Shown here: positions 1-34,746 of the stretch, piece by piece
Position numbering within the stretch: the first letter of the stretch is position 1
How the letters are laid out: each line of letters starts with the position of its first letter
Assembly: GCF_044324785.1 (NCBI RefSeq)
Contig: NZ_CP172127.1
Length of the DNA stretch: 64,000 nt
Strand: one strand, 5' to 3'
Source: Escherichia coli
Lineage (GTDB): Bacteria; Pseudomonadota; Gammaproteobacteria; Enterobacterales; Enterobacteriaceae
Translations under genes and position numbers: made by a program
The notes under the pieces: generated by a model
What the model saw: only the letters and a program-made list of their open reading frames with translations
Database searches by the model: none
Told to the model about the DNA's origin: nothing

Positions 1-2301
1 ATGGCCGTTAAAGCCTCCGGGCGTTTTGTCCCTCCGTCAGCATTTGCCGCAGGCACCGGTAAGGCGTTTACCGGTGCTTATGCATGGAACGCGCCACGCG
101 AGGCTGTCGGGCGCGAAAGACCCCTTACACGTGACGAGATGCGTCAGGTGCAAGGTGTTTTATCCACGATTAACCGCCTGCCTTACTTTTTGCGCTCGCT
201 GTTTACTTCACGCTATGACTACATCCGGCGCAATAAAAGCCCGGTGCACGGGTTTTATTTCCTCACATCCACTTTTCAGCGTCGTTTATGGCCGCGCATT
301 GAGCGTGTGAATCAGCGCCATGAAATGAACACCGACGCGTCGTTGCTGTTTCTGGCAGAGCGTGACCACTATGCGCGCCTGCCGGGAATGAATGACAAGG
401 AGCTGAAAAAGTTTGCTGCCCGTATCTCATCGCAGCTTTTCATGATGTATGAGGAACTCTGCGATGCCTGGGTGGATGCGCATGGCGAAAAAGAATCGCT
501 GTTTACGGATGAGGCGCAGGCACATCTGTATGGTCATGTTGCTGGCGCTGCACGTGCTTTCAATATTTCCCCGCTTTACTGGAAAAAATACCGTAAAGGG
601 CAGATGACCACGAGGCAGGCATATTCTGCCATTGCCCGCCTGTTTAACGATGAGTGGTGGACTCATCAGCTTAAAGGCCAGCGTATGCGCTGGCATGAGG
701 CGTTACTGATTGCTGTCGGGGAGGTCAATAAAGACCGTTCTCCTTATGCCAGTAAACATGCCATTCGTGATGTGCGTGCGCGCCGCCAGGCAAATCTGGA
801 ATTTCTTAAATCGTGTGACCTTGAAAACAAGGAAACCGGCGAGCGCATCGACCTTATCAGTAAGGTGATGGGCAGTATTTCTAATCCAGAAATTCGCCGG
901 ATGGAGCTGATGAACACCATCGCCGGTATTGAGCGTTACGCCGCCGCAGAGGGTGATGTAGGGATGTTTATCACGCTGACCGCGCCGTCAAAGTATCACC
1001 CGACACGTCAGGTCAGAAAAGGCGAAAGTAAAACCGTCCAGCTAAATCACGGCTGGAACGATGAGGCATTTAATCCAAAGGATGCGCAGCGTTATCTCTG
1101 CCGTATCTGGAGCCTGATGCGCACGGCATTCAAGGATAATGATTTACAGGCCTACGGTTTGCGTGTTGTTGAACCACACCACGACGGAACGCCGCACTGG
1201 CATATGATGCTTTTTTGTAATCCACGCCAGCGTAACCAGATTATTGAAATCATGCGTCGCTACGCGCTCAAAGAGGATGGCGACGAAAGAGGAGCTGCGC
1301 GAAACCGTTTTCAGGCAAAACACCTTAACCGGGGCGGTGCTGCGGGATATATCGCGAAATACATCTCAAAAAACATCGACGGCTATGCACTGGATGGTCA
1401 GCTCGATAATGATACCGGTAGACCGCTGAAAGACACAGCTGCGGCTGTTACCGCATGGGCGTCAACGTGGCGCATTCCGCAATTTAAAACGGTTGGTCTG
1501 CCGACAATGGGGGCTTACCGTGAACTACGCAAATTGCCTCGCGGCGTCAGCATTGCTGATGAGTTTGACGAGCGCGTCGAGGCTGCACGCGCCGCTGCAG
1601 ACAGTGGTGATTTTGCGTTGTATATCAGCGCGCAGGGCGGGGCAAATGTCCCGCGCGATTGCCAGACTGTCAGGGTCGCCCGTAGCCCGTCGGATGACGT
1701 TAACGAGTACGAGGAAGAAGTCGAGAGAGTGGTCGGCATTTACGCGCCGCATCTCGGCGCGCGTCATATTCATATCACCAGAACGACGGACTGGCGCATT
1801 GTTCCGAAAGTGCCGGTCGTTGAGCCTTTGACTTTAAAAAGCGGCATCGCCGCGCCTCGGAGTCCTGTCAATAACTGTGGAAAGCTCACCGGTGGTGATA
1901 CTTCGTTACCGGCTCCCACACCTTCTGAGCACGCCGCAGCAGTGCTTAATCTGGTTGATGACGGTGTTATTGAATGGAATGAACCGGAGGTCGTGAGGGC
2001 GCTCAGGGGCGCATTAAAACACGGCCTGAGAAGACCAAACCGTCAGCAAAGAAACGGAAGCCCGTTAAAACCGCATGAAATAGCGCCATCGGCCAGACTG
2101 ACCCGGTCGGAACGAATGCAAATTACCCGTATCCGCGTTGACCTTGCTCAGAACGGTATCAGGCCACAGCGATGGGAGCTTGAGGCGCTGGCGCGTGGTG
2201 CGATGGTGATATTCGATGATAAAAAATATAAGTATGTGGCAAGTAATGTCGATGAGTGGCAGGGTTTTAGTAATGAGTACTTCAGCAAAGAGCTCAAGTA
2301 A
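1..2301 (+). CDS. A: P2-type replication initiator, rolling-circle nicking endonuclease gpA (766 aa)
   Basis: ORF starts with ATG at position 1. HUH-type motif PHWHMML and tyrosine pair GYIAKYISK are visible in the translation. Colinear with the downstream P2-like gene set. Promoter lies outside the window. Confidence 0.9.
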   Translation: MAVKASGRFVPPSAFAAGTGKAFTGAYAWNAPREAVGRERPLTRDEMRQVQGVLSTINRLPYFLRSLFTSRYDYIRRNKSPVHGFYFLTSTFQRRLWPRIERVNQRHEMNTDASLLFLAERDHYARLPGMNDKELKKFAARISSQLFMMYEELCDAWVDAHGEKESLFTDEAQAHLYGHVAGAARAFNISPLYWKKYRKGQMTTRQAYSAIARLFNDEWWTHQLKGQRMRWHEALLIAVGEVNKDRSPYASKHAIRDVRARRQANLEFLKSCDLENKETGERIDLISKVMGSISNPEIRRMELMNTIAGIERYAAAEGDVGMFITLTAPSKYHPTRQVRKGESKTVQLNHGWNDEAFNPKDAQRYLCRIWSLMRTAFKDNDLQAYGLRVVEPHHDGTPHWHMMLFCNPRQRNQIIEIMRRYALKEDGDERGAARNRFQAKHLNRGGAAGYIAKYISKNIDGYALDGQLDNDTGRPLKDTAAAVTAWASTWRIPQFKTVGLPTMGAYRELRKLPRGVSIADEFDERVEAARAAADSGDFALYISAQGGANVPRDCQTVRVARSPSDDVNEYEEEVERVVGIYAPHLGARHIHITRTTDWRIVPKVPVVEPLTLKSGIAAPRSPVNNCGKLTGGDTSLPAPTPSEHAAAVLNLVDDGVIEWNEPEVVRALRGALKHGLRRPNRQQRNGSPLKPHEIAPSARLTRSERMQITRIRVDLAQNGIRPQRWELEALARGAMVIFDDKKYKYVASNVDEWQGFSNEYFSKELK

Positions 2302-2351
2302 TGGTAGAATTAAATATTGTTGTCTAAATATACATATATGGTTAACTGAAC

Positions 2352-3503
2352 ATGAATGTGGTTGATTTATACTCAGGGGTAGGTGGTTTAAGCTTGGGAG
2401 CATCACGGGCAGGCTTTAACTTGGTTGGTGCCGTTGAGTTGGATAAGCATGCAATATTTTCCCATGCTCTTAATTTCCCAAATTCAACACATTTACATAA
2501 AGATGTTAGCAAACTTTCTGCTCATGATATTCTAACAGCTTGTAATGTTAGTAATATTGATTGTGTCATCGGTGGACCACCTTGTCAGGGATTTAGTACA
2601 ATTGGTAAAGGGATGGCTAATGACGTCAGAAATGAATTGTATATTCATTTTTTTAGGTTGGTGAGCGAGTTATCACCTGTTTGTTTCTTGGCAGAGAATG
2701 TTCCTGGGATAATGAATGAAAAATATGATGCAGTTAGAGAAAAAGCATTCTCATTAGTAAAAGACCGATATGTAATATTGAGCCCAATAAAAGTGAATGC
2801 GTCTAATTATGGAGCTCCTACAACTAGAACTAGGATTTTTTTTATCGGATTCAAAAAGGAATTAGCTAATTGTTTAAAAGAATCTGATTTCTTTCCTGTG
2901 CAAGATATTGAGCAAACCTTAGTTAAAGATGCTTTATACGGTATTCCTCGTGTTATAAGAAAAGAATGGCAGCAAGAGGAACAAGGCTGGCGTGAAGTTA
3001 AGATGGATAGGCAAGGATATTTTTTTGATAGACTTTGGAGTAATGTTCCGAATAATGTTGGTGATCCGGAATCTTTAGAAAAATTAAAAAAAGGGTTGGT
3101 CTCCGGTTTCTTGGGAACAATACATACAGATGAGGTTATTAATAGATATAAAAAACTCTCTTTTGGCGAAACTGATAAAATTTCACGATCTCAGAGGTTA
3201 AATCCAAATGGTTTCTGTCCGACGCTAAGGGCTGGAACTGGCAGCGATAAGGGCAGTTATCAAGCAGTTAGGCCGATCCATCCAACGCAGGCTAGAGTTA
3301 TTACTCCACGTGAGGCTGCTCGATTACAAGGTTTTCCTGATTGGTTTAGGTTTCACCCTACTAAGTGGCATAGTTTCAGGCAAATCGGTAATAGCGTTAG
3401 CCCATTAGTAGCTGAAGCTATGCTATTACCGTTATATAAATTATGTCAGTTTTCTAAAGAAGAACTTTCGAATACCACGGAATTACTTTGTAATACTCAA
3501 TAA
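2352..3503 (+). CDS. DNA (cytosine-5)-methyltransferase (383 aa)
   Basis: Canonical C5-MTase motifs in order: motif I DLYSGVGG, motif IV GGPPCQGFS, motif VI FLAENVPG, motif VIII-like TTRTRIFFIG, motif X IGNSVSP. AT-rich relative to flanking phage genes. Starts 51 bp after the gpA stop. Confidence 0.85.
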   Translation: MNVVDLYSGVGGLSLGASRAGFNLVGAVELDKHAIFSHALNFPNSTHLHKDVSKLSAHDILTACNVSNIDCVIGGPPCQGFSTIGKGMANDVRNELYIHFFRLVSELSPVCFLAENVPGIMNEKYDAVREKAFSLVKDRYVILSPIKVNASNYGAPTTRTRIFFIGFKKELANCLKESDFFPVQDIEQTLVKDALYGIPRVIRKEWQQEEQGWREVKMDRQGYFFDRLWSNVPNNVGDPESLEKLKKGLVSGFLGTIHTDEVINRYKKLSFGETDKISRSQRLNPNGFCPTLRAGTGSDKGSYQAVRPIHPTQARVITPREAARLQGFPDWFRFHPTKWHSFRQIGNSVSPLVAEAMLLPLYKLCQFSKEELSNTTELLCNTQ

Positions 3504-3915
3504 AGTTTTTAAGGTTACTATTAGCCTCGGCTTCATCATCTCCAATGTAAAAGCCGAGGTCGTTGGTAATTTCTTCATGGTCTTTTGTAGGAAGTCGTTC
3601 CTCAATAAAGATTCTCTCACGTAAAGACATCGTGGGAACACTAATGTTTTTGACGGTGCCCCAGTCTCCAGAATAAAAGGGCCAAAAATTAATTCGAGAA
3701 TTTTGAAGGAAGCTATCTAATTGCATATCACTGTTTTCGAGAACAATGGCAGTAAAGGTAAGCATTTGCTGACCATCTTTGTAAATAAAATTACATAAAG
3801 GATGGATCATTATATCTGGTCTACCTGTTAATCCAATACTTATGGCACGTTGAGCTGCTTTTATTAAAAGGTGTGGGTACCTTTTAAAAGTGACATCATC
3901 AACAGTTAGATTCAC
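3454..3915 (-). CDS. Hypothetical protein (153 aa), third gene of GHKL-ATPase operon
   Basis: GTG start overlaps the stop of the upstream 177-aa ORF by 4 nt (GTGA). No recognisable motif. 3' end overlaps the MTase 3' end convergently by 50 bp. Confidence 0.55.
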   Translation of the reverse strand: MNLTVDDVTFKRYPHLLIKAAQRAISIGLTGRPDIMIHPLCNFIYKDGQQMLTFTAIVLENSDMQLDSFLQNSRINFWPFYSGDWGTVKNISVPTMSLRERIFIEERLPTKDHEEITNDLGFYIGDDEAEANSNLKNFIEYYKVIPWYSKVLL

Positions 3916-4445
3916 TGGGCAATAATCTTGAGTAAGTAAAGATTGTATTTTTTTAATCGAAAACGCCTAGGGTCTCTTTCTTGAAAATCTCTTCCTAAAG
4001 TTTCAGGAGTTGCATTTAAAGTTATTTTAAATATATCTTTTGGCTTTAACTTACTTACCAATTGAGCAATGTCATTCATTTGCTCATATATTTGGCTTGG
4101 TATGGCATAGTCAAGCCAAATTAGAGAAGGTGCAGCGAAGTCGCTTTGAGTAATAAATTCACTGCTACTTAAAGGTTCTTCTCCTAAATCAATACATGAT
4201 ATAGGTTTGTTAAATTTTTGTCGTTTATGAACGTTAGCATCTACCTCTAGAGAGATCATGTTATTGATTTTTAAAGCATTATGCAGTTGTTTGAAGTCTT
4301 CTAGAAAAGGGCCACCAAACCCGATATAAACATAATCGGATATGTTTACATAGTTGTTGAGTTTTCTGAGCAACTCAATGAATAGATTTCTTTCGACAGC
4401 TTTGTGTTGTCGAAGATGATAAGGAATACTTCCCCCAGTACTCAT
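3912..4445 (-). CDS. Hypothetical protein (177 aa), second gene of GHKL-ATPase operon
   Basis: ATG overlaps the stop of the 488-aa ORF by 4 nt (ATGA). Weak glycine-rich stretch YVYIGFGGPF could be a nucleotide- or SAM-binding loop, but no confident family assignment. Confidence 0.55.
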   Translation of the reverse strand: MSTGGSIPYHLRQHKAVERNLFIELLRKLNNYVNISDYVYIGFGGPFLEDFKQLHNALKINNMISLEVDANVHKRQKFNKPISCIDLGEEPLSSSEFITQSDFAAPSLIWLDYAIPSQIYEQMNDIAQLVSKLKPKDIFKITLNATPETLGRDFQERDPRRFRLKKYNLYLLKIIAQ

Positions 4446-5908
4446 TTTTTTGCCCTCTCTAAAAAATCTTCAAAGCAATAATTACCAATTTCTGTCGGAG
4501 GAACAGAATCATCATCGAAAATGAAAGTGGCAACAGTTTTTATCTCACTCAATCTTCTACTAAATTTTATTTGCTTTAAAGGGTCTGTTTCTTTAGGTAT
4601 TGGCAATGTTGGTTTGAAACTATTCCCACCAATGGATCTATGCACCCGAGACCATTTATCTTCAGGTACTATGCTATCTAGTTTGTCGTTTGTAAGAGGA
4701 ATTGTTTTAGATGTGGAACTAAACATTTGCTGGCGTTCTGGAGAGTTACTTTTCCATCTGTTAGTAAAATCTGTAAATATTTTCAAGCCTTCACGCATGA
4801 AATCTTTAGTAGCCAAATAGATATCAGAATTACCATCAATGCCTCTCTTGGTAGTAGTAATAGGTAATTTTTCAGCTTCATTAGATGTAAAAATAGCTAC
4901 GCCTGCAATTCCAACAAATTGTGTGTGATATTGTGGAACTCCTGCTTCACCCCATCCGGTAAGACGTGTCTTGTCCGCATGAACAACAACACGATCATTG
5001 CAGATAATAGTCCATCCGGCTTTCTCGGAAGTGTTACGTCCAGTAAGGAATGAATTTTCCTCATCTTCTGTCACAAAATCTCTATAGAATCCAACTGCGA
5101 TCTTTATTGAAACTCCATTAGTTTCACCTCTGTAAAAATAAGGCGTGATACCACCTTTTTTCGCTGACACAAGAGCTTCGGTATCGATAATTAATGATGT
5201 CAGATTTGGCTTGACTTCTATATCATTAATATAGACCTTGAAACCTTTATTAAGAATTAGGCTATAATGGTTTGAAACAGAATTGATTAATTTTTGTTGA
5301 AAATCACGATCAACTTTGAAATGGTTTTTTACATCGTCTCTGAGATCGTTAACTATAATTTTTACGCCCGTTGTTTTTAAATCGACATTACCACGTTCGA
5401 GATCTAGTTTCCAGTTTTTATCATTGGATAACCATTCTGGAGAAATTGTAACTTTAAATTCCTCGTCTTTTGTTTTACTTAATACTTGCGATGAAGTGCC
5501 CAACTTAAAAATAGCTCGCTTCATACCTATCCCATAAACACCAATGGTTGGGATATTATCTATGTCTCTTTCATTTGGTCTTCCCATTCGGAAAGCATAG
5601 CTTGTTGCTAAGCTTCCCGAAATTCCGCCACAATTATCTTCAATTGTAAAACCATCTTCATTAAAATTTATTTTTGAGTAAAAACCGTGGTATTTATTTT
5701 CTTCGTTTATTTCTTCATTCGATGATGAAATGGAACGAAGAGCGCCATCAAGACAGTTGTCTAATAAGTCAAGAATAGCATCTTGGAGTTCGATATCCCT
5801 GGTTAACATTTCTACAAAGAAACGTTTTGCAGGAAAAGCTTCGATGATATCGTTTGCCATAGTTATTTTAGTTCCATCTGTGTGATTACTTATAGATATG
5901 TTTACCAT
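4442..5908 (-). CDS. GHKL-superfamily (MutL/GyrB/MORC-like Bergerat fold) ATPase (488 aa)
   Basis: N-box AILDLLDNCLDGA, G1 box IEDNCGGISG and G2 box IGVYGIGMKRA occur in the expected order and spacing in the N-terminal ~130 residues. C-terminal ~350 residues unassigned. First gene of a 3-gene coupled operon. Confidence 0.7.
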   Translation of the reverse strand: MVNISISNHTDGTKITMANDIIEAFPAKRFFVEMLTRDIELQDAILDLLDNCLDGALRSISSSNEEINEENKYHGFYSKINFNEDGFTIEDNCGGISGSLATSYAFRMGRPNERDIDNIPTIGVYGIGMKRAIFKLGTSSQVLSKTKDEEFKVTISPEWLSNDKNWKLDLERGNVDLKTTGVKIIVNDLRDDVKNHFKVDRDFQQKLINSVSNHYSLILNKGFKVYINDIEVKPNLTSLIIDTEALVSAKKGGITPYFYRGETNGVSIKIAVGFYRDFVTEDEENSFLTGRNTSEKAGWTIICNDRVVVHADKTRLTGWGEAGVPQYHTQFVGIAGVAIFTSNEAEKLPITTTKRGIDGNSDIYLATKDFMREGLKIFTDFTNRWKSNSPERQQMFSSTSKTIPLTNDKLDSIVPEDKWSRVHRSIGGNSFKPTLPIPKETDPLKQIKFSRRLSEIKTVATFIFDDDSVPPTEIGNYCFEDFLERAKK

Positions 5909-6136
5909 AAAACAAGGTACAGATCATCGATGTTTAGCACAACATCTTGAGAGTTTCTTGGTAGCATGAGGGGGATTATGCCGCTTATTTTATGATTTTC
6001 AGCTTTGTGCTAATGCATCTAACTGGTGCATGAGTTTGCATTCGCTTTTATTTCAAAGCATGTGGGGGCGTGCTAGTGTTGGTAGAGCTCTGATTTCCTG
6101 ATGCAACTGCATTAAAACCGCCCCATGAAGCGGGCG

Positions 6137-6155
6137 GGCGAGGCGGGGAAAGCAC
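6137..6155. other. cos: P2-type cos site (19-nt cohesive end GGCGAGGCGGGGAAAGCAC)
   Basis: Exact 19-mer present in the GC-rich spacer between the cargo operon and the portal gene Q, where cos lies in P2. The P2 cohesive-end sequence is recalled from memory. Confidence 0.7.
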
Positions 6156-6297
6156 TGCGCGCTGGCGGTGGTGCTGATTTTATTTTTTCAGCGTCTCAGC
6201 GCGTCGTGACGGCGCTTAGTCTGCCCGTTGAGGCGTTGGTGTGTCTGCGGGGTGTTTTGTGCGGTGGTGAGCGTGTGAGGGCGTGATGACGGGGTGT

Positions 6298-6320
6298 AAA
6301 AAAGCCGCCCGCAGGCGGCG
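6298..6320 (-). terminator. Rho-independent terminator downstream of Q
   Basis: Minus-strand hairpin CGCCGCC-TGC-GGGCGGC followed by a T6 run, immediately after the Q stop codon. Confidence 0.65.
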
Positions 6321-6324
6321 ATGT

Positions 6325-7359
6325 TCAGCCGTTGTCAGTGTCCAGTGAGTAGTTTTTAAATCGGATGACCTCCTGACCGAGCCAGCCGTTTATCTCGCGG
6401 ATCCTGTCCTGTAACGGGATAAGCTCATTGCGGACAAAGACCTTTGCCACTTTCTCAATATCACCCAGCGACCCGACGTTCTCCGGCTTGCCGCCCATCA
6501 ACTGAAAGGGGATGCGGTGCGCGTCCAGCAGGTCTGCGGCGCTGGCTTTTTTGATATTAAAAAAATCGTCTTTCGTCGCCACTTCACTGAGCGGGATAAT
6601 TTTAATGCCGTCGGCTTTTCCCTGCGGGGCGTAGAGAAACAGATTTTTAAAGTTGTTGCGGCCTTTCGACTTCACCATGTTTTCGCGGAGCATTTCGATA
6701 TCGTTGCGATCCTGCACGGCGTCGGTGACGTACATGATGTATCCGGCATGTGCGCCGTTTTCGTAATACTTGCGGCGGAACAGCGTGGCCGACTCATTCA
6801 GCCAGGCAGAGTTAAGGGCGCTGAGATATTCCGGCAGGCCGTACAGCTCCTGATTGATATCCGGCTCCAGCAGGTGAAATACGGAGCCGGGCGCGAAGGC
6901 TGTCGGTTCGTTGAAGGACGGCACCCACCAGTAAACATCCTCTTCCACCCCACGGCGGGTATATTTTGCCGGTGAGGTTTCCAGTCTGATGACCTTACCG
7001 GTGGTGCTGTAACGCTTTTCCAGAAACGCATTGCCGAACACCAGAAAATCCAGCACAAAGCGGCTGAAATCCTGCTGGGAAAGCCACGGATGCGGGATAA
7101 ATGTCGAGGCCAGAATATTGCGTTTGACGTAAATCGGTGAGCTGTGATGCACGGCAGCACGCAGACTTTTTGCCAGCCCGGTAAAGCTGACCGGCGGCTC
7201 ATACCATCTGCCGTTACTGATGCATTCGACGTAATCCAGAATGTCACGGCGGTCGAGTACCGGCACCGGCTCGCCAAAGGTGAATGCCTCCATTTTCGGG
7301 GCGCTGGCAGTCATTTTTTTTGCCGCAGGTTGCGGTGTTTTCCCTTTTTTCTTGCTCAT
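6325..7359 (-). CDS. Q: Portal protein gpQ (344 aa)
   Basis: Size, position next to cos and terminase, and sequence are typical of the P2 portal protein. Confidence 0.9.
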   Translation of the reverse strand: MSKKKGKTPQPAAKKMTASAPKMEAFTFGEPVPVLDRRDILDYVECISNGRWYEPPVSFTGLAKSLRAAVHHSSPIYVKRNILASTFIPHPWLSQQDFSRFVLDFLVFGNAFLEKRYSTTGKVIRLETSPAKYTRRGVEEDVYWWVPSFNEPTAFAPGSVFHLLEPDINQELYGLPEYLSALNSAWLNESATLFRRKYYENGAHAGYIMYVTDAVQDRNDIEMLRENMVKSKGRNNFKNLFLYAPQGKADGIKIIPLSEVATKDDFFNIKKASAADLLDAHRIPFQLMGGKPENVGSLGDIEKVAKVFVRNELIPLQDRIREINGWLGQEVIRFKNYSLDTDNG

Positions 7360-9131
7360 CAGTAAAACTCCAGAATGGTGGATGTCAGCGGGGTGCTGAT
7401 ACCGGCGGTGAGTGGCTCATTTAACAGGGCGTGCATGGTCGCCCAGGCGAGGTCGGCGTGGCTGGCTTCCTCGCTGCGGCTGGCTTCATAGGTGGCGCTG
7501 CGTCCGCTGCTGGTCATGGTCTTGCGGATAGCCATAAACGAGCTGGTGATGTCGGTGGCGCTGACGTCATATTCCAGACAGCCACGGCGGATAACGTCTT
7601 TTGCCTTGAGCACCATTGCGGTTTTCATTTCCGGCGTGTAGCGGATATCACGCGCGGCGGGATAGAACGAGCGCACGAGCTGGAACACGCCGACACCGAG
7701 GCCGGTGGCATCAATACCGATGTATTCGACGTTGTATTTTTCGGTGAGTTTGCGGATGGATTCAGCTTGGGTGGCAAAGTCCATGCCTTTCCACTGGTGA
7801 CGCTCAAGTATTCTGAATTTGCCACCGGCCACCACCGGCGGTGCCAGTACCACGCATCCGGCGCTGTCGCCACGGTGTGACGGGTCGTAACCAATCCATA
7901 CCGGGCGGGAGCCGAACGGATTGGCGGCAAACGGCGCATAGTCTTCCCATTCTTCCAGCGTGTCGACCATGCAGCGTTGCAGCTCCTCGAACGGGAACAC
8001 CGATGCCTTGTCGTCAACAAATTCACACATGAACAGGTTTTTAAAATCGTCGGCGCTGTTTTCGCGTTTGAGCTGCTCAATGTCGAACAGCGTGCAGCCG
8101 CCTTTCAGGGCATCCTCAATGGTGACAATCTGCCGCCACTGGCCGTCCGCACAGAGAAGCCCACCGGCAAGGGCGTTATGACTGACGTCGATTTCCACAC
8201 GTTCGGCGGCGCTGGCGCGTCCCCGGTTGAACAGTTCACCTGACCAGAACGGGTAGGCGTCGTGCGCCAGCGTGGACGGGGTGGAGAAATAGGTCGAGCG
8301 CAGGTGACTCTGTGAGGCCATACCTGATGCCACCTTACGCAGTACCTGAAAATTCGGGATCCAGAAAATCTCATCGACGTACAGGTCGCCGTTATGGCTC
8401 TGCGCGGTGTTGGAGTTTGTGCCGAGAAAAATCAGTTTTGCGCCGTTATTGCCCAGGACAATCGGGTCACCGGTCAGGTCAACGTCAACCAGACGGGCAA
8501 AGGCGATGATGTATTCACGGAATACATACGCCTGCGTTTTACTGGCCGACAGAAAAATCTGGTTATGGCCGGTTTTCAGGGCGCGCAGCAGCGCCTCGCG
8601 GGAAAAATAAAACGTTGCGCCAATCTGGCGGGATTTCAGGATATCGCGGATGCGGTGCTCAAGCCCGGCGCGATACCAGTGCAACTGATAGTCGAAAGAC
8701 TGCTCAAAGAAAATCTGCTCCAGCTTTTCGATGGCCTCGTCACTGAAAAAATTCTTTTTCGGTTTGCGACGCCCGCCTTTGTTGCGGTTAGCGACGTTCG
8801 GATTAAGGTCTGCCTCGTTGCCGGTCTGACTGTAGCGGTTTATCCGTGCCAGTCGTTCAATCTGGCGTCCGAGCAGGTCAATTTCCTTGAAGTCACCACC
8901 GGTTTTCTGCGGTTTGATGATGAGCTGGGTCAGTCGCGCTTCCAGACTCATTTCGACACGGCTGATGGGGGCAACGCTGTCCCAGCCGTCGCGCTGTTTC
9001 CAGCTCTGCACCGTCGGGCGTTTCATCTGCAACATGGCGGCAATCTGCGGCACGGAAAACCCCTGCCAGTACAGCAGCGCCGCCTGACGACGCGGGTCGT
9101 GTAAAAGAGTGGTGTCTGTGGTGATGGTCAT
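7359..9131 (-). CDS. P: Terminase large (ATPase) subunit gpP (590 aa)
   Basis: ORF track gives 7359..9161. Start trimmed to the internal Met (MTITTDTTLL) that matches the P2 gpP N-terminus and length. Confidence 0.9.
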   Translation of the reverse strand: MTITTDTTLLHDPRRQAALLYWQGFSVPQIAAMLQMKRPTVQSWKQRDGWDSVAPISRVEMSLEARLTQLIIKPQKTGGDFKEIDLLGRQIERLARINRYSQTGNEADLNPNVANRNKGGRRKPKKNFFSDEAIEKLEQIFFEQSFDYQLHWYRAGLEHRIRDILKSRQIGATFYFSREALLRALKTGHNQIFLSASKTQAYVFREYIIAFARLVDVDLTGDPIVLGNNGAKLIFLGTNSNTAQSHNGDLYVDEIFWIPNFQVLRKVASGMASQSHLRSTYFSTPSTLAHDAYPFWSGELFNRGRASAAERVEIDVSHNALAGGLLCADGQWRQIVTIEDALKGGCTLFDIEQLKRENSADDFKNLFMCEFVDDKASVFPFEELQRCMVDTLEEWEDYAPFAANPFGSRPVWIGYDPSHRGDSAGCVVLAPPVVAGGKFRILERHQWKGMDFATQAESIRKLTEKYNVEYIGIDATGLGVGVFQLVRSFYPAARDIRYTPEMKTAMVLKAKDVIRRGCLEYDVSATDITSSFMAIRKTMTSSGRSATYEASRSEEASHADLAWATMHALLNEPLTAGISTPLTSTILEFY

Positions 9132-9304
9132 GAATACCTCGCCGTGATGAATACACGGCAAGGCTACTGAGTCGCGCCCTGCGATTCGCTAAGGTGCTGT
9201 TGTGTCAGTGATAAGCCATCCGGGACTGATGGCGGAGGATGCGCATCGTCGGGAAACTGATGCCGACATGTGACTCCTCTAATCACTATTCAGGACTCCT
9301 GACA
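9132..9304. promoter_or_regulatory. Divergent late promoter region between P (leftward) and O (rightward)
   Basis: Intergenic spacer between divergently oriented late operons. In P2 this spacer holds the Ogr-dependent late promoters. Individual promoter elements not resolved by eye. Confidence 0.5.
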
Positions 9305-10159
9305 ATGGCAAAAAAAGTCTCAAAATTCTTTCGTATCGGCGTTGAGGGTGACACCTGTGACGGGCGTGTCATCAGTGCGCAGGATATTCAGGAAATGGCC
9401 GAAACCTTTGACCCGCGTGTCTATGGTTGCCGCATTAACCTGGAACATCTGCGCGGCATCCTGCCTGACGGCATTTTTAAACGTTATGGCGATGTGGCCG
9501 AACTGAAGGCCGAAAAGATTGACGATGATTCGGCGCTGAAAGGCAAATGGGCGCTGTTTGCGAAAATCACCCCGACCGATGACCTTATCGCGATGAACAA
9601 GGCCGCGCAGAAGGTCTACACCTCAATGGAAATTCAGCCGAACTTTGCCAACACCGGCAAATGTTATCTGGTGGGGCTGGCCGTCACCGATGACCCGGCA
9701 AGCCTCGGCACGGAATACCTGGAATTCTGCCGCACGGCAAAACACAACCCTCTGAACCGCTTCAAATTAAGCCCTGAAAACCTGATTTCAGTGGCAACGC
9801 CTGTTGAGCTGGAATTTGAAGACCTGCCTGAAACCGTGTTCACCGCCCTGACCGAAAAGGTGAAGTCCATTTTTGGCCGCAAACAGGCCAGCGATGATGC
9901 CCGTCTGAATGACGTGCATGAAGCGGTGACCGCTGTTGCTGAACATGTGCAGGAAAAACTGAGCGCCACTGAGCAGCGCCTCGCGGAGATGGAAACCGCC
10001 TTTTCCGCACTTAAGCAGGAGGTGACTGACAGGGCGGATGAAACCAGCCAGGCATTCACCCGCCTGAAAAACAGTCTCGACCACACCGAAAGTCTGACCC
10101 AGCAGCGCCGCAGCAAGGCCACCGGCGGTGGCGGTGACGCCCTGATGACGAACTGCTGA
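9305..10159 (+). CDS. O: Capsid scaffolding protein gpO (284 aa)
   Basis: ORF track starts at 9239. Trimmed to MAKKVSKFF, which matches the P2 gpO start and length. Confidence 0.9.
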   Translation: MAKKVSKFFRIGVEGDTCDGRVISAQDIQEMAETFDPRVYGCRINLEHLRGILPDGIFKRYGDVAELKAEKIDDDSALKGKWALFAKITPTDDLIAMNKAAQKVYTSMEIQPNFANTGKCYLVGLAVTDDPASLGTEYLEFCRTAKHNPLNRFKLSPENLISVATPVELEFEDLPETVFTALTEKVKSIFGRKQASDDARLNDVHEAVTAVAEHVQEKLSATEQRLAEMETAFSALKQEVTDRADETSQAFTRLKNSLDHTESLTQQRRSKATGGGGDALMTNC

Positions 10160-10216
10160 CCGGCATCAGTCATCCGGGAAAACCTTCACGATTAACCCTT
10201 AATTTCAGGAAAAACT

Positions 10217-11290
10217 ATGCGCCAGGAAACCCGCTTTAAATTTAATGCCTACCTGTCCCGTGTTGCCGAACTGAACGGCATCGACGCCGGTGATGTGTCG
10301 AAAAAATTCACCGTTGAACCGTCGGTCACCCAGACCCTGATGAACACCATGCAGGAGTCCTCTGACTTTCTGACCCGCATCAACATTGTGCCGGTCAGCG
10401 AAATGAAAGGGGAAAAAATTGGCATCGGTGTCACCGGCTCCATCGCCAGCACCACCGACACCGCCGGTGGCACCGAGCGTCAGCCGAAGGACTTCTCGAA
10501 GCTGGCGTCAAACAAGTACGAATGCGACCAGATTAACTTCGATTTTTATATCCGCTACAAAACGCTTGACCTGTGGGCGCGTTATCAGGATTTCCAGCTC
10601 CGTGTCCGTAACGCCATTATCAAACGCCAGTCCCTTGATTTCATCATGGCCGGTTTTAACGGCGTGAAGCGTGCCGAAACCTCTGACCGCAGCAGCAATC
10701 CGATGTTGCAGGATGTGGCGGTCGGCTGGCTGCAGAAATACCGCAATGAAGCACCGGCGCGCGTGATGAGCAAGGTCACTGACGAGGAAGGTCACACGAC
10801 CTCTGAGGTCATCCGCGTGGGTAAGGGCGGTGATTATGCCAGCCTTGATGCACTGGTGATGGATGCGACCAACAACCTGATCGAACCGTGGTATCAGGAA
10901 GACCCTGACCTTGTGGTGATAGTGGGACGTCAGTTACTGGCGGACAAGTATTTCCCCATCGTTAACAAGGAGCAGGACAACAGCGAAATGCTGGCCGCTG
11001 ACGTCATCATCAGCCAGAAACGCATCGGCAACCTGCCAGCGGTACGCGTCCCGTACTTCCCGGCGGATGCGATGCTCATCACGAAGCTGGAAAACCTGTC
11101 CATCTACTACATGGATGACAGCCATCGCCGCGTGATTGAGGAAAACCCGAAACTCGACCGCGTGGAGAACTACGAGTCAATGAACATTGATTACGTGGTG
11201 GAGGACTACGCCGCCGGTTGTCTGGTGGAAAAAATTAAGGTCGGTGATTTCTCCACACCGGCTAAAGCGACCGCAGAGCCGGGAGCGTAA
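10217..11290 (+). CDS. N: Major capsid protein gpN (357 aa)
   Basis: Length and position in the O-N-M-L head module. Confidence 0.9.
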   Translation: MRQETRFKFNAYLSRVAELNGIDAGDVSKKFTVEPSVTQTLMNTMQESSDFLTRINIVPVSEMKGEKIGIGVTGSIASTTDTAGGTERQPKDFSKLASNKYECDQINFDFYIRYKTLDLWARYQDFQLRVRNAIIKRQSLDFIMAGFNGVKRAETSDRSSNPMLQDVAVGWLQKYRNEAPARVMSKVTDEEGHTTSEVIRVGKGGDYASLDALVMDATNNLIEPWYQEDPDLVVIVGRQLLADKYFPIVNKEQDNSEMLAADVIISQKRIGNLPAVRVPYFPADAMLITKLENLSIYYMDDSHRRVIEENPKLDRVENYESMNIDYVVEDYAAGCLVEKIKVGDFSTPAKATAEPGA

Positions 11291-11293
11291 CCG

Positions 11294-12037
11294 ATGACGA
11301 GTCCCGCACAGCGCCACATGATGCGGGTCTCGGCAGCGATGACCGCGCAGCGGGAAGCCGCCCCGCTGCGACATGCAACTGTCTATGAGCAGATGCTGGT
11401 CAAGCTGGCCGCAGACCAGCGCACACTGAAAGCGATTTATTCAAAAGAGCTGAAGGCCGCGAAAAAACGCGAACTGCTGCCGTTCTGGTTGCCGTGGGTG
11501 AACGGCGTGCTGGAGCAGGGCAAAGGTGCACAGGATGACATTCTGATGACGGTCATGCTGTGGCGTCTGGATACCGGCGATATTGCCGGTGCGCTGGAGA
11601 TTGCCCGTTATGCCCTGAAGTACGGTCTGACCATGCCGGGTAAACACCGCCGCACCCCGCCGTACATGTTCACCGAGGAGGTGGCGCTTGCGGCCATGCG
11701 CGCTCACGCTGCCGGTGAGTCTGTGGATACCCGCCTGCTGACGGACACCCTTGAACTGACCGCCACGGCTGACATGCCTGATGAAGTGCGCGCAAAGCTG
11801 CACAAAATCACCGGTCTGTTTCTGCGTGACGCTGGTGATGCCGCAGGGGCGCTGGCGCACCTGCAACGTGCGACACAGCTCGACTGTCAGGCAGGCGTCA
11901 AAAAAGAGATTGAACGACTGGAGCGGGAACTGAAACCGAAGCCGGAGCCACAGCCAAAAGCGGCCACCCGCGCCCCGCGTAAGACCCGGAGTGCGACACC
12001 GGCAAAACGTGGACGCCCGAAAAAGAAAGCCAGTTAA
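11294..12037 (+). CDS. M: Terminase small (endonuclease) subunit gpM (247 aa)
   Basis: Position after N. Basic C-terminal tail. Confidence 0.9.
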   Translation: MTSPAQRHMMRVSAAMTAQREAAPLRHATVYEQMLVKLAADQRTLKAIYSKELKAAKKRELLPFWLPWVNGVLEQGKGAQDDILMTVMLWRLDTGDIAGALEIARYALKYGLTMPGKHRRTPPYMFTEEVALAAMRAHAAGESVDTRLLTDTLELTATADMPDEVRAKLHKITGLFLRDAGDAAGALAHLQRATQLDCQAGVKKEIERLERELKPKPEPQPKAATRAPRKTRSATPAKRGRPKKKAS

Positions 12038-30574: not shown

Positions 30575-30655
30575 TGTCTTTATTTTATCTGTTTGTTTTA
30601 TAAGGATAAATTAACTAAAATGGCACCATCAACAAAACCGGAAGAGGTGCTCGCG

Positions 30656-30874
30656 ATGTTTCATTGTCCTTTATGCCAGCATGCCGCACATGCGCGTACA
30701 AGCCGCTATATCACTGACACGACAAAAGAGCGTTATCACCAGTGTCAGAACGTGAATTGCAGCGCCACGTTCATCACTTATGAGTCGTTACAGCGATACA
30801 TCGTGAAGCCGGGAGAAGTCCACGCCGTAAGACCGCACCCGTTGCCGTCAGGGCAGCAAATTATGTGGATGTAA
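30656..30874 (+). CDS. ogr: Late gene transcriptional activator Ogr, zinc finger (72 aa)
   Basis: MFHCPLCQHAAHARTSRY...CQNVNCSATF with a four-Cys zinc motif. ORF track start at 30593 trimmed to the internal Met. Confidence 0.9.
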   Translation: MFHCPLCQHAAHARTSRYITDTTKERYHQCQNVNCSATFITYESLQRYIVKPGEVHAVRPHPLPSGQQIMWM

Positions 30875-33345: not shown

Positions 33346-34746
33346 CTATTTAAAAGGTATGTAACCCCTTAATCTGTTGTGAAGTTCCGGATTGCGGGTA
33401 AAAAGCGCCTGAAGTTGCTGACGCTGGGGAGCATTCGGTTGAATGCCCGAAAGATTGAAATTGCGTTGCCATATTGCGAGCTGTTTATCTGCAAATTCTT
33501 CAGTTAGTTTGTGTTGCGATTGCAGAAGAAGAATTAAACCGTCCCATTTGTTCAAGTTATGATACAACCGACAATATGCGCAAGCATGTTTAACTGACGG
33601 TGCGTTTTCCAGCAACTGACGTATTTCCTCGAACGTGAGCGGAACGCGACACCATACACAGATGTTAACCATAAATCGAAGCCCGGAGGCGTCCGGGTTA
33701 GCCAGTGTGGTCAGAATAATCCCTTTGGCACCACCATCAGGATTGGCTTTCGCAAGAATATACATAGCGGCTAATCGCAGTGGGAATACATCCTGTGATA
33801 ATCCCCATTCAGCCAGTTTTAAAATATTGGCATCATGAATGGAGTCCAGCCCGTATAAAGCTGCCCGGCGCTGTGAGGGAGTATATTCAGTCGAGGTGAC
33901 AACATGACGCCAGAATTGCGCAACATCCATGACGTCATTAAGCATGTTTTTAGCGCGTAGACGGATCAACATATTGTTATCCAGCAGTAATGCGCTGTAC
34001 AACGCCGGAGGAATTTCTATAGCTCGGTCAGTAAGGCTAAACAACGTTGCTTGTCGAATACGCGGCCAGCGGTCTTTTAACAGACGAGTTAATACCGCTT
34101 CGCTTAACGGTAATTGTTGACGCAGCCAGTGGGTGACCGCCAGCATTCGTAAACCTTCGTCGGGCTGCTTGAGTATTAAAAGCAGCGAAGATTCATCATT
34201 AAAGTAGCCATATTCAATCAGCGTTTGTAATACTGCGCGGGAGAGTTTTTTATCAGGGCAAGTAAGCCAACACGTTAATTGTGGACGGCTATTTTCTGTC
34301 AATAAAAATCTAAGTATCTCGTCTACAAATGCACGGTGATCGTAACGCTGGCATTGGAGAAGGTTACGTATCATGGGAAGATTAACGGCAAATGCCGCTG
34401 CATTCTTATCCTTCTTTAAATGACGTAACGCTATGGTTGCAGCAAGGCGAACCTCTTTTACCCAGTCATTAGCTGCAAGTAATAATTCTTCTATAGCTGC
34501 AACATCCTCTTTTTGTCCCAGACATTGCACGGCCTTTTCTCGTATATATCCATTGTGGTGATGGGTAAGCTGGCAAAGAACCAGAGTATCGTTGAGATCA
34601 CAATCATGCGCTATATAATTGCCTGGATCGGCTATCATCGCCTGGAGTTGTTGCTGGATAAGAAATAATTCACAGTCAACAGAATTATTCATTTCGACAT
34701 TAAACAAAACCCTGCGTGTAAATAATGTACGCAATCCTTTGAGCAT
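33346..34746 (-). CDS. Hypothetical HEAT/ARM-like repeat protein (466 aa)
   Basis: Recurrent approximately VRxxAxxAL helical-repeat signatures (KEVRLAATIALRHL, WPRIRQATLFSL, FPLRLAAMYILAK). Lower GC than flanking core genes. Confidence 0.6.
   Translation of the reverse strand: MLKGLRTLFTRRVLFNVEMNNSVDCELFLIQQQLQAMIADPGNYIAHDCDLNDTLVLCQLTHHHNGYIREKAVQCLGQKEDVAAIEELLLAANDWVKEVRLAATIALRHLKKDKNAAAFAVNLPMIRNLLQCQRYDHRAFVDEILRFLLTENSRPQLTCWLTCPDKKLSRAVLQTLIEYGYFNDESSLLLILKQPDEGLRMLAVTHWLRQQLPLSEAVLTRLLKDRWPRIRQATLFSLTDRAIEIPPALYSALLLDNNMLIRLRAKNMLNDVMDVAQFWRHVVTSTEYTPSQRRAALYGLDSIHDANILKLAEWGLSQDVFPLRLAAMYILAKANPDGGAKGIILTTLANPDASGLRFMVNICVWCRVPLTFEEIRQLLENAPSVKHACAYCRLYHNLNKWDGLILLLQSQHKLTEEFADKQLAIWQRNFNLSGIQPNAPQRQQLQALFTRNPELHNRLRGYIPFK

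Follow-up and report, generated by a model that had tools for sequence, protein, structure and literature searches.

A P2-type cos site with a probable extended packaging signal beside an exchangeable cargo cassette in an apparently intact prophage of Escherichia coli

Introduction

The cos site of phage lambda is organised as cosQ, cosN and cosB, that is, a nicking site with 5' cohesive ends and recognition repeats on one side of it. In P2-like phages and prophages, the slot between gpA and gpQ, beside cos, has been described as a hotspot of diversity and defence genes (Rousset 2022, PMC9122126; bioRxiv 2026.02.27.708500), in which pseudogenes are reported to be rare (bioRxiv 2026.02.27.708500). 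For prophages of the 186 type the hotspot had been described earlier (Odegrip 2006; Dodd and Egan 1996; cited in PMC9122126 and PMC5694545). GHKL ATPases of the MORC/paraMORC class occur in operons of restriction-modification (R-M) type (Iyer, Abhiman and Aravind 2008, PMC2292703).

The present analysis concerns a 64-kb stretch of Escherichia coli DNA, hereafter the window, and within it the region around a 19-nt cohesive-end sequence. The layout is ordinary, and both the cos sequence and the cos-adjacent hotspot are already known. The account that we regard as highly probable is that the window contains the cos of an apparently intact P2-like prophage, with an extended packaging signal and an exchanged cargo beside it, and that this neighbourhood carries no reliable meaning for the order of packaging.

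Results and Discussion

Cohesive-end sequence and gene order

The cohesive end and the conserved prophage features around it are located as follows.

6137..6155, plus strand: cohesive-end sequence (cos cleavage region), GGCGAGGCGGGGAAAGCAC, 19/19 identical to P2 cosL/cosR
1..2301, plus strand: gpA replication endonuclease, left border of the hotspot
6304..6319, minus strand: tQ-like rho-independent terminator of the late P-Q operon; P2 tQ is annotated at the equivalent place
6325..7359, minus strand: portal gpQ (Pfam Phage_portal), right border of the hotspot
7359..9131, minus strand: large terminase gpP (Pfam Terminase_5/6N/6C)
11294..12037, plus strand: small terminase gpM (Pfam Phage_term_smal)

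The sequence GGCGAGGCGGGGAAAGCAC was matched only once in the 64-kb window, even when up to 3 mismatches were allowed (0.02 matches expected by chance). Base 1 of the P2 reference (AF063097/NC_001895), in which cosL is annotated at bases 1-19 and cosR at bases 33575-33593, aligned exactly to window position 6137. At least 12 further phage genome records, including those of Wphi, fiAA91-ss, R18C, PSP3, 186 and EtG, begin at the base homologous to 6137, as expected for a physical terminus. The same 19-mer was the commonest cohesive-end variant among 116 cos arms taken from viral contigs (62 arms), and it fits the P2-type consensus GGCG(A/T)GGCGGGG(A/T)AAGCA(C/T). The exact match to the annotated P2 ends and the single occurrence in the window bear out the earlier note, which had taken the 19-mer for a P2-type cohesive end, and the alignment around cos with P2, 186, P4 and other P2-like genomes upheld its assignment to cos. 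On the strength of these sequence comparisons, 6137..6155 is very probably the cos packaging site of a P2-like prophage.

The gene order was gpA, the C5 methylase, the ATPase/PF20553 pair, cos, Q, P, O, N, M and the tail genes, as far as ogr at ~30.9 kb.

Proposed extended anatomy of cos

Conserved sequence was found on both sides of the cohesive end, most of it on the side of the cargo.

6101..6136, plus strand: proximal right arm of cos, ATGCAACTGCATTAAAACCGCCCCATGAAGCGGGCG, 36 bp, common to P2, 186, P4 and a Cronobacter phage
6156..6162, plus strand: portal-side TGCGCGC, directly after the cohesive end, nearly invariant across elements
6014..6041, plus strand: distal cos repeats, TGCAT (6014..6018), GGTGCAT (6025..6031) and TTGCAT (6036..6041)

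Homology with phages of unrelated cargo resumes at ~6101. The element TGCAACTGCATTAAAACCG(C/A)CCC...AAG(C/T)GGGC(G/A) directly precedes the cohesive end in the window, P2, 186 and P4, with P2 diverging upstream of TGCATT. Positions 6101..6155 match P4 and 186 and constitute the conserved flank (~36 bp on the right-arm side plus the cohesive end); a figure of 55 bp for cos is given in the literature (PMC2231350, PMC9594776). On the left, portal side, P4 keeps only (T/C)GCGCGC as similarity. Window positions 6164..6288 are dispensable, because they are absent altogether from the Cronobacter phage with an orthologous cassette.

The distal repeats stand at ~-123, ~-112 to -110 and ~-101/-100 from the cohesive end, offsets that agree within 1 nt in the window, P2, 186 and P4; the 55-60 bp between these repeats and the proximal arm are unrelated in the same four elements. 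The TGCAT repeats and the 36-bp arm are also at fixed offsets in the Cronobacter orthologue. The 116 cos arms were grouped into 78 clusters with unrelated cargo-side sequence (-300 to -131). TGCAT was present at -112..-110 in 63, at -102..-100 in 61 and at -125..-120 in 45 of the 78 clusters, with a background of 0.0013 per position, figures to be read with the limit that the clusters were set on -300 to -131 and some shared ancestry in -130..-96 is possible, though in P4, 186 and P2 this stretch cannot otherwise be aligned. At a given offset, TGCAT was absent from about 15-17 of the 78 clusters.

We conclude from this conservation that the packaging signal probably spans roughly 6014..6162 and not the 19 nt alone. 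The TGCAT repeats are most likely recognition sites of the terminase, probably of its small subunit gpM. Cosmids with longer cos flanks are transduced 1e4 to 5e4-fold better than those with short ones (PMC9594776). In the arrangement proposed, cos would be multipart, composed of the 19-nt end, the 36-bp cargo-side arm and three TGCAT repeats on the same strand ~100-125 bp out, and the sequence between the distal and the proximal elements would be free to vary.

The repeats at 6014..6041 could instead be a conserved promoter/operator module that drives the hotspot cargo and is no part of cos. In the window and in Cronobacter they do precede the cargo operon, and the mapped old-tin starts of P2 put the -35 region on the first TGCAT repeat. 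However, P4 and 186 have the repeats at the same offset and no leftward gene to drive there: the genes adjoining them, P4 psu and 186 orf97, are transcribed towards cos, so that in these elements the repeats are not a leftward cargo promoter. P4, moreover, has only packaging in common with P2 (PMC9122126), and the rise of transduction with longer cos flanks (PMC9594776) also speaks for packaging. A promoter module is therefore considered improbable, and the assignment of the repeats to cos is preferred.

Inside the conserved arm, a GC-rich hairpin (6118..6137) followed by TTTTAAT is terminator-like on the minus strand, where it is directed into the cassette; P2 and the Cronobacter phage have it too. 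Its interpretation as a conserved fold was rejected, as 186 breaks 2 of the 6 pairs without compensation, which leaves conservation of the sequence only. The hairpin could be a second barrier to read-through from the late operon.

Cargo genes

The cassette between gpA and cos comprises three genes.

4442..5860, minus strand: GHKL + S5-type ATPase, 472 aa; the longest ORF reaches 5908, an extension that is unsupported
3454..4445, minus strand: PF20553 gene, product with a class-I SAM methyltransferase fold, split into ORFs 3912..4445 and 3454..3915
2352..3503, plus strand: C5 cytosine DNA methyltransferase (Dcm type), 50 bp after the gpA stop

For the ATPase, the start at 5860 is the one at which RefSeq begins the protein in two related genomes; the PHROG profile aligns from residue 15, 120 homologues have lengths of 461-474 aa, and the N-terminus of the Cronobacter orthologue is conserved only from that Met. 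The distance of about 230 bp previously given between cos and the ATPase operon holds for the ATG of the longest ORF at 5908 (228 bp), and becomes 276 bp when measured to the supported start. The AlphaFold model of the ATPase (pLDDT 80) had its best fold matches with Hsp90/TRAP1, GyrB and SMCHD1 over ~400 residues, and comparison of this fold detected no domain beyond GHKL and the S5-like transducer.

The PF20553 gene is split by the loss of 1 nt in the T-run 3948..3954, which is T7 here and T8 in all 8 of the related prophages, where the gene is intact (330 codons). The change from T8 to T7 reflects either an error in sequencing the homopolymer or an inactivation of recent date. The predicted structure of the product (pLDDT 91) had a class-I SAM-methyltransferase fold, with distant matches only (best Trm1, TM 0.43).

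The dcm gene converges on the minus-strand operon with a 3' overlap of 50 bp (3454..3503). The 50 bp from the gpA stop to the dcm start (2302..2351) are on the same strand as both genes and have no terminator-like hairpin. The methylase may be co-transcribed with the early replication operon in lytic growth, its partners being read from the opposite strand.

Of the three proteins, PADLOC matched its models to Dcm alone. The ATPase and PF20553 had no match above the cut-off in PADLOC and NCBIfam, the sole NCBIfam match being a far sub-threshold MzaB; both belong to PHROGs families of unknown function, a sequence search of the PDB found nothing, and a literature search on PF20553 found no report. 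Known RNA families were likewise not found in 1..12000. WonAB/VcSduA was considered as the identity of the cargo and set aside, the paper dealing with different systems. The cargo genes are convergent as in R-M systems. A type II R-M system was also rejected: a methyltransferase is present, but no nuclease domain or fold was found, PF20553 having that of a SAM methyltransferase and the ATPase only GHKL and the transducer.

The pair of ATPase and PF20553 genes, with a C5 methylase next to it, was also seen in Vibrio cholerae (beside TnsC/D/E of a Tn7-like element), in Pseudomonas syringae (chromosomal), in Burkholderia (in an integrase island, together with Vsr) and in Serratia; no nuclease was recognised in these loci outside P2 phages. 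A second, longer HATPase_c_3 protein (574-610 aa) is sometimes found alongside the module outside P2 phages. An orthologous trio, 70-79% identical, occupies the corresponding position of a Cronobacter P2-like prophage, with its orientation unchanged. It is possible, though doubtful, that the cargo is an undescribed nuclease-free, methylation-linked defence or epigenetic module, moving as one unit among defence-type slots of mobile elements, namely the P2 hotspot, integrase islands and a Tn7-like element.

Promoter of the ATPase operon

5975..6002, minus strand: best candidate sigma-70 promoter of the ATPase operon, CTGAAA, 16 nt, CATAAT; 1 found vs 0.8 expected

The earlier note held that 5909..6136 must contain the operon promoter. 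This interval is a likely place for one, the P2 old-tin promoter having been mapped in its equivalent, but "must" claims too much: P and Q are read in the operon's own direction and towards the cassette, with only terminator-like hairpins between. The interval itself also needs amendment, since ~125 bp of it (6014..6136) are conserved cos and the gene starts at 5860. Scanning of the interval on the minus strand for consensus promoters gave a single match at chance level, the candidate at 5975..6002, whose position is similar to that of the mapped P2 old promoter. The scan of the Cronobacter orthologue found none, and in a control on P2 the experimentally mapped old promoter was not detected; the scanner is uninformative and cannot decide the promoter, because it found nothing at either place. 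Footprinting against Cronobacter and P2 revealed only short AT-rich strings in common.

The annotated old-tin transcript starts of P2, 33424/33426, correspond to -151/-149 from cos. In our reading of the P2 old promoter, the -35 is TTGAAT at -115..-120, overlapping the first TGCAT repeat, and the -10 is TAAAAA at -138..-143. By analogy, the promoter of the ATPase operon is most likely placed between 5861 and ~6013, possibly reaching into the repeats. A lysogenic promoter would occupy the ~150 bp that separate the ATG at 5860 from the distal cos repeats, and may overlap the repeats as the P2 old promoter does.

Alternatively, the ATPase operon would have no dedicated promoter and would be read through from the late P-Q operon across cos. 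The ATPase operon shares the minus strand with Q and P, and the sole consensus promoter in the interval is a chance-level match, with none in the Cronobacter orthologue; this silence of the scanner means little, however, since it also missed the real P2 promoter. Between Q and the cassette there are two T-tailed terminator-like hairpins (6304..6319 and 6118..6137), the P2 old-tin operon, at the equivalent location, has mapped starts of its own, and hotspot systems are active when cloned with their native upstream regions (PMC9122126). Expression only late would also be odd for the partner of a prophage-borne methylase. Little weight is consequently given to read-through, and a promoter of the operon's own is favoured. 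Should that promoter abut or overlap the repeats, terminase binding and cargo transcription might, as a more remote possibility, be mutually exclusive, with the cargo off once packaging starts.

Position of the cargo and order of packaging

The side of cos on which cargo is found differs between P2-like and P4-like elements. In 71 P2-like contigs, 58 clusters were on the right-arm side vs 17 on the left-end side, and in 7 P4-like contigs the figures were 2 and 7. By annotation, the gop-beta-cII genes of P4 follow cos at the left end. With P2 and P4 cargo on opposite sides of cos, packaging in either direction puts one of the two cargo types at the first-packaged end, and cos-adjacent cargo cannot in general be at the last-packaged end.

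It had been claimed from the adjacency to cos that the cassette is the last DNA packaged. In that case it would be the last DNA into the head and the first injected, which would explain the build-up of cargo there. It counts for this explanation that the DNA of P2, 186 and P4 is joined to the tail at one particular end, as Chattoraj and Inman reportedly found in 1974. A position at the end could also give early expression, by the example of lambda, of which the last-packaged end is generally held to exit first (PMC10287942). Against this, the cargo is expressed from the prophage or from the circular form, in which the ends are joined, and circular monomers are the substrate of P2 packaging (PMC2231350). 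Most of the conserved recognition sequence is on the cargo side of the nicks, which by analogy with lambda cosB would point, if anything, to the first-packaged end. The claim is unsupported, as the sequence itself gives no packaging polarity, and the P4-like satellites, which have the same oriented cos and the same terminase and carry their variable region on the other side, speak against it. That being packaged last explains the build-up of cargo beside cos is unlikely, and we retain the reading in which adjacency to cos says nothing reliable on packaging order.

Hotspot and exchange of the cassette

The location of the cassette in a recombination-prone cargo hotspot of the P2 family, also stated previously, was confirmed: the slot between gpA and gpQ beside cos is published (PMC9122126), and the edges of the exchanged block could be mapped. 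The cassette has a GC content of 32-43% vs 52-59% in the flanks. Among complete E. coli genomes it was present in 2/5426, the cos/portal flank being present in 2152/5426; in the phage records searched, the cassette was found in none. The cargo would be a foreign, low-GC module of three genes, with dcm on the strand of gpA and the GHKL-ATPase/PF20553 operon running leftward from cos, like P2 old-tin.

In 8 related prophages the cassette differs from that of the window at 1 to 15 sites in 3.8 kb; the divergence of gpA in the same 8 prophages is 1.7-3%, and that on the Q/P side 2.2-2.8% in 7 of them, the remaining one (EC77) being identical from 1820 rightward. The edges of the low-divergence block are at 1812..2220 in gpA (left) and at 6188..6197, just past cos (right). 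A nearly identical cassette in backbones mostly 2-3% diverged indicates exchange of the cassette by homologous recombination in the conserved flanks. The module would be swapped between P2 backbones in this way, the crossovers falling within the 3' part of gpA on one side and, on the other, inside the conserved core of cos or shortly past it.

The EC05 prophage is without 8 bp (CAGCGTCT) at 6188..6195, where the window has the near-repeat CAGCGTCT / CAGCGCGT. This indel is the right edge of the block in which EC05 is identical to the window, ~33 bp past the cohesive end.

State of the prophage

The packaging genes Q, P, O, N and M are intact, and the prophage is apparently intact within the window, with int, C, cox and B falling outside it. 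The window begins exactly at the start codon of gpA, as does the EC05 chromosome record (NZ_CM169495.1, position 1). The source assembly was probably rotated to start at gpA as a "replication" gene, which would put the int-C-cox-B part at the far end of the record. Shortly beyond an ogr-like zinc-finger gene (30593..30874) the prophage comes to its end, and a host gene for a U32-family peptidase follows, which occupies the minus strand from 32508 to 31147. No tRNA genes were found in the 64-kb window, so that the attachment site is not a tRNA.

That the 19-mer is a relic in a defective prophage, its packaging role lost, is very improbable, for although the window holds only part of the prophage and one cargo gene is frameshifted, the cos region from 6081 to 6187 is identical in the 8 related prophages with all conserved elements intact, and Q, P, O, N, M, sheath, tape measure, D and ogr are all full-length.

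Implications

The location in itself adds little, as the cos of P2 is textbook knowledge and the cos-adjacent hotspot is published. For annotators, the ~150 bp of 6014..6162 should be counted as packaging signal when the boundaries of cargo are drawn or "native promoters" are cloned, and packaging order should not be inferred from adjacency to cos. The rare, conserved three-gene module of uncharacterised function is a reasonable candidate for defence assays.

Comparison with known systems

In general terms, the cos of lambda is alike in combining a nicking site with recognition elements that are repeated, on one side of it, over a distance of up to ~100 bp. The sequences are not similar, and the overhang is 19 nt here vs 12 nt in lambda. 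P2 packages circular monomers and not concatemers, unlike lambda (PMC2231350).

For the cargo ATPase, the MORC/paraMORC GHKL ATPases are the nearest described class. They are alike in the combination of GHKL with an S5-like transducer and in the linked cytosine methylase, with Vsr too in Burkholderia. A helicase or nuclease partner, however, was not found for the cargo ATPase, the constant partner of which is a protein with a SAM-methyltransferase fold.

With the hotspots of P2-like phages and P4 (PMC9122126), the locus shares highly variable genes beside cos, between conserved core genes, that are exchanged across diverged elements. The occupant here differs in not being a recognised defence system, with Dcm alone matching PADLOC models, and the P4 hotspot differs in being on the opposite side of cos.

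The closest comparison is that with the cos/old-tin region of P2 (AF063097/NC_001895). The P2 cargo is orf91, tin and old vs dcm, the GHKL ATPase and PF20553 here, the sequence from ~-96 to -38 is not alignable, and the window interval is 15-20 bp longer around the promoter. On the other hand, the 19-nt cohesive ends do not differ at all, the arm TGCATTAAAACCGCCCC.TGAAGCGGGCG differs by one base only, and the distance to the GGTGCATGAG.TTGCATT element is unchanged. Both have the order gpA - cargo - cos - Q - P, and in both the cos-proximal cargo operon runs leftward, its start in P2 being ~150 bp inside cos.
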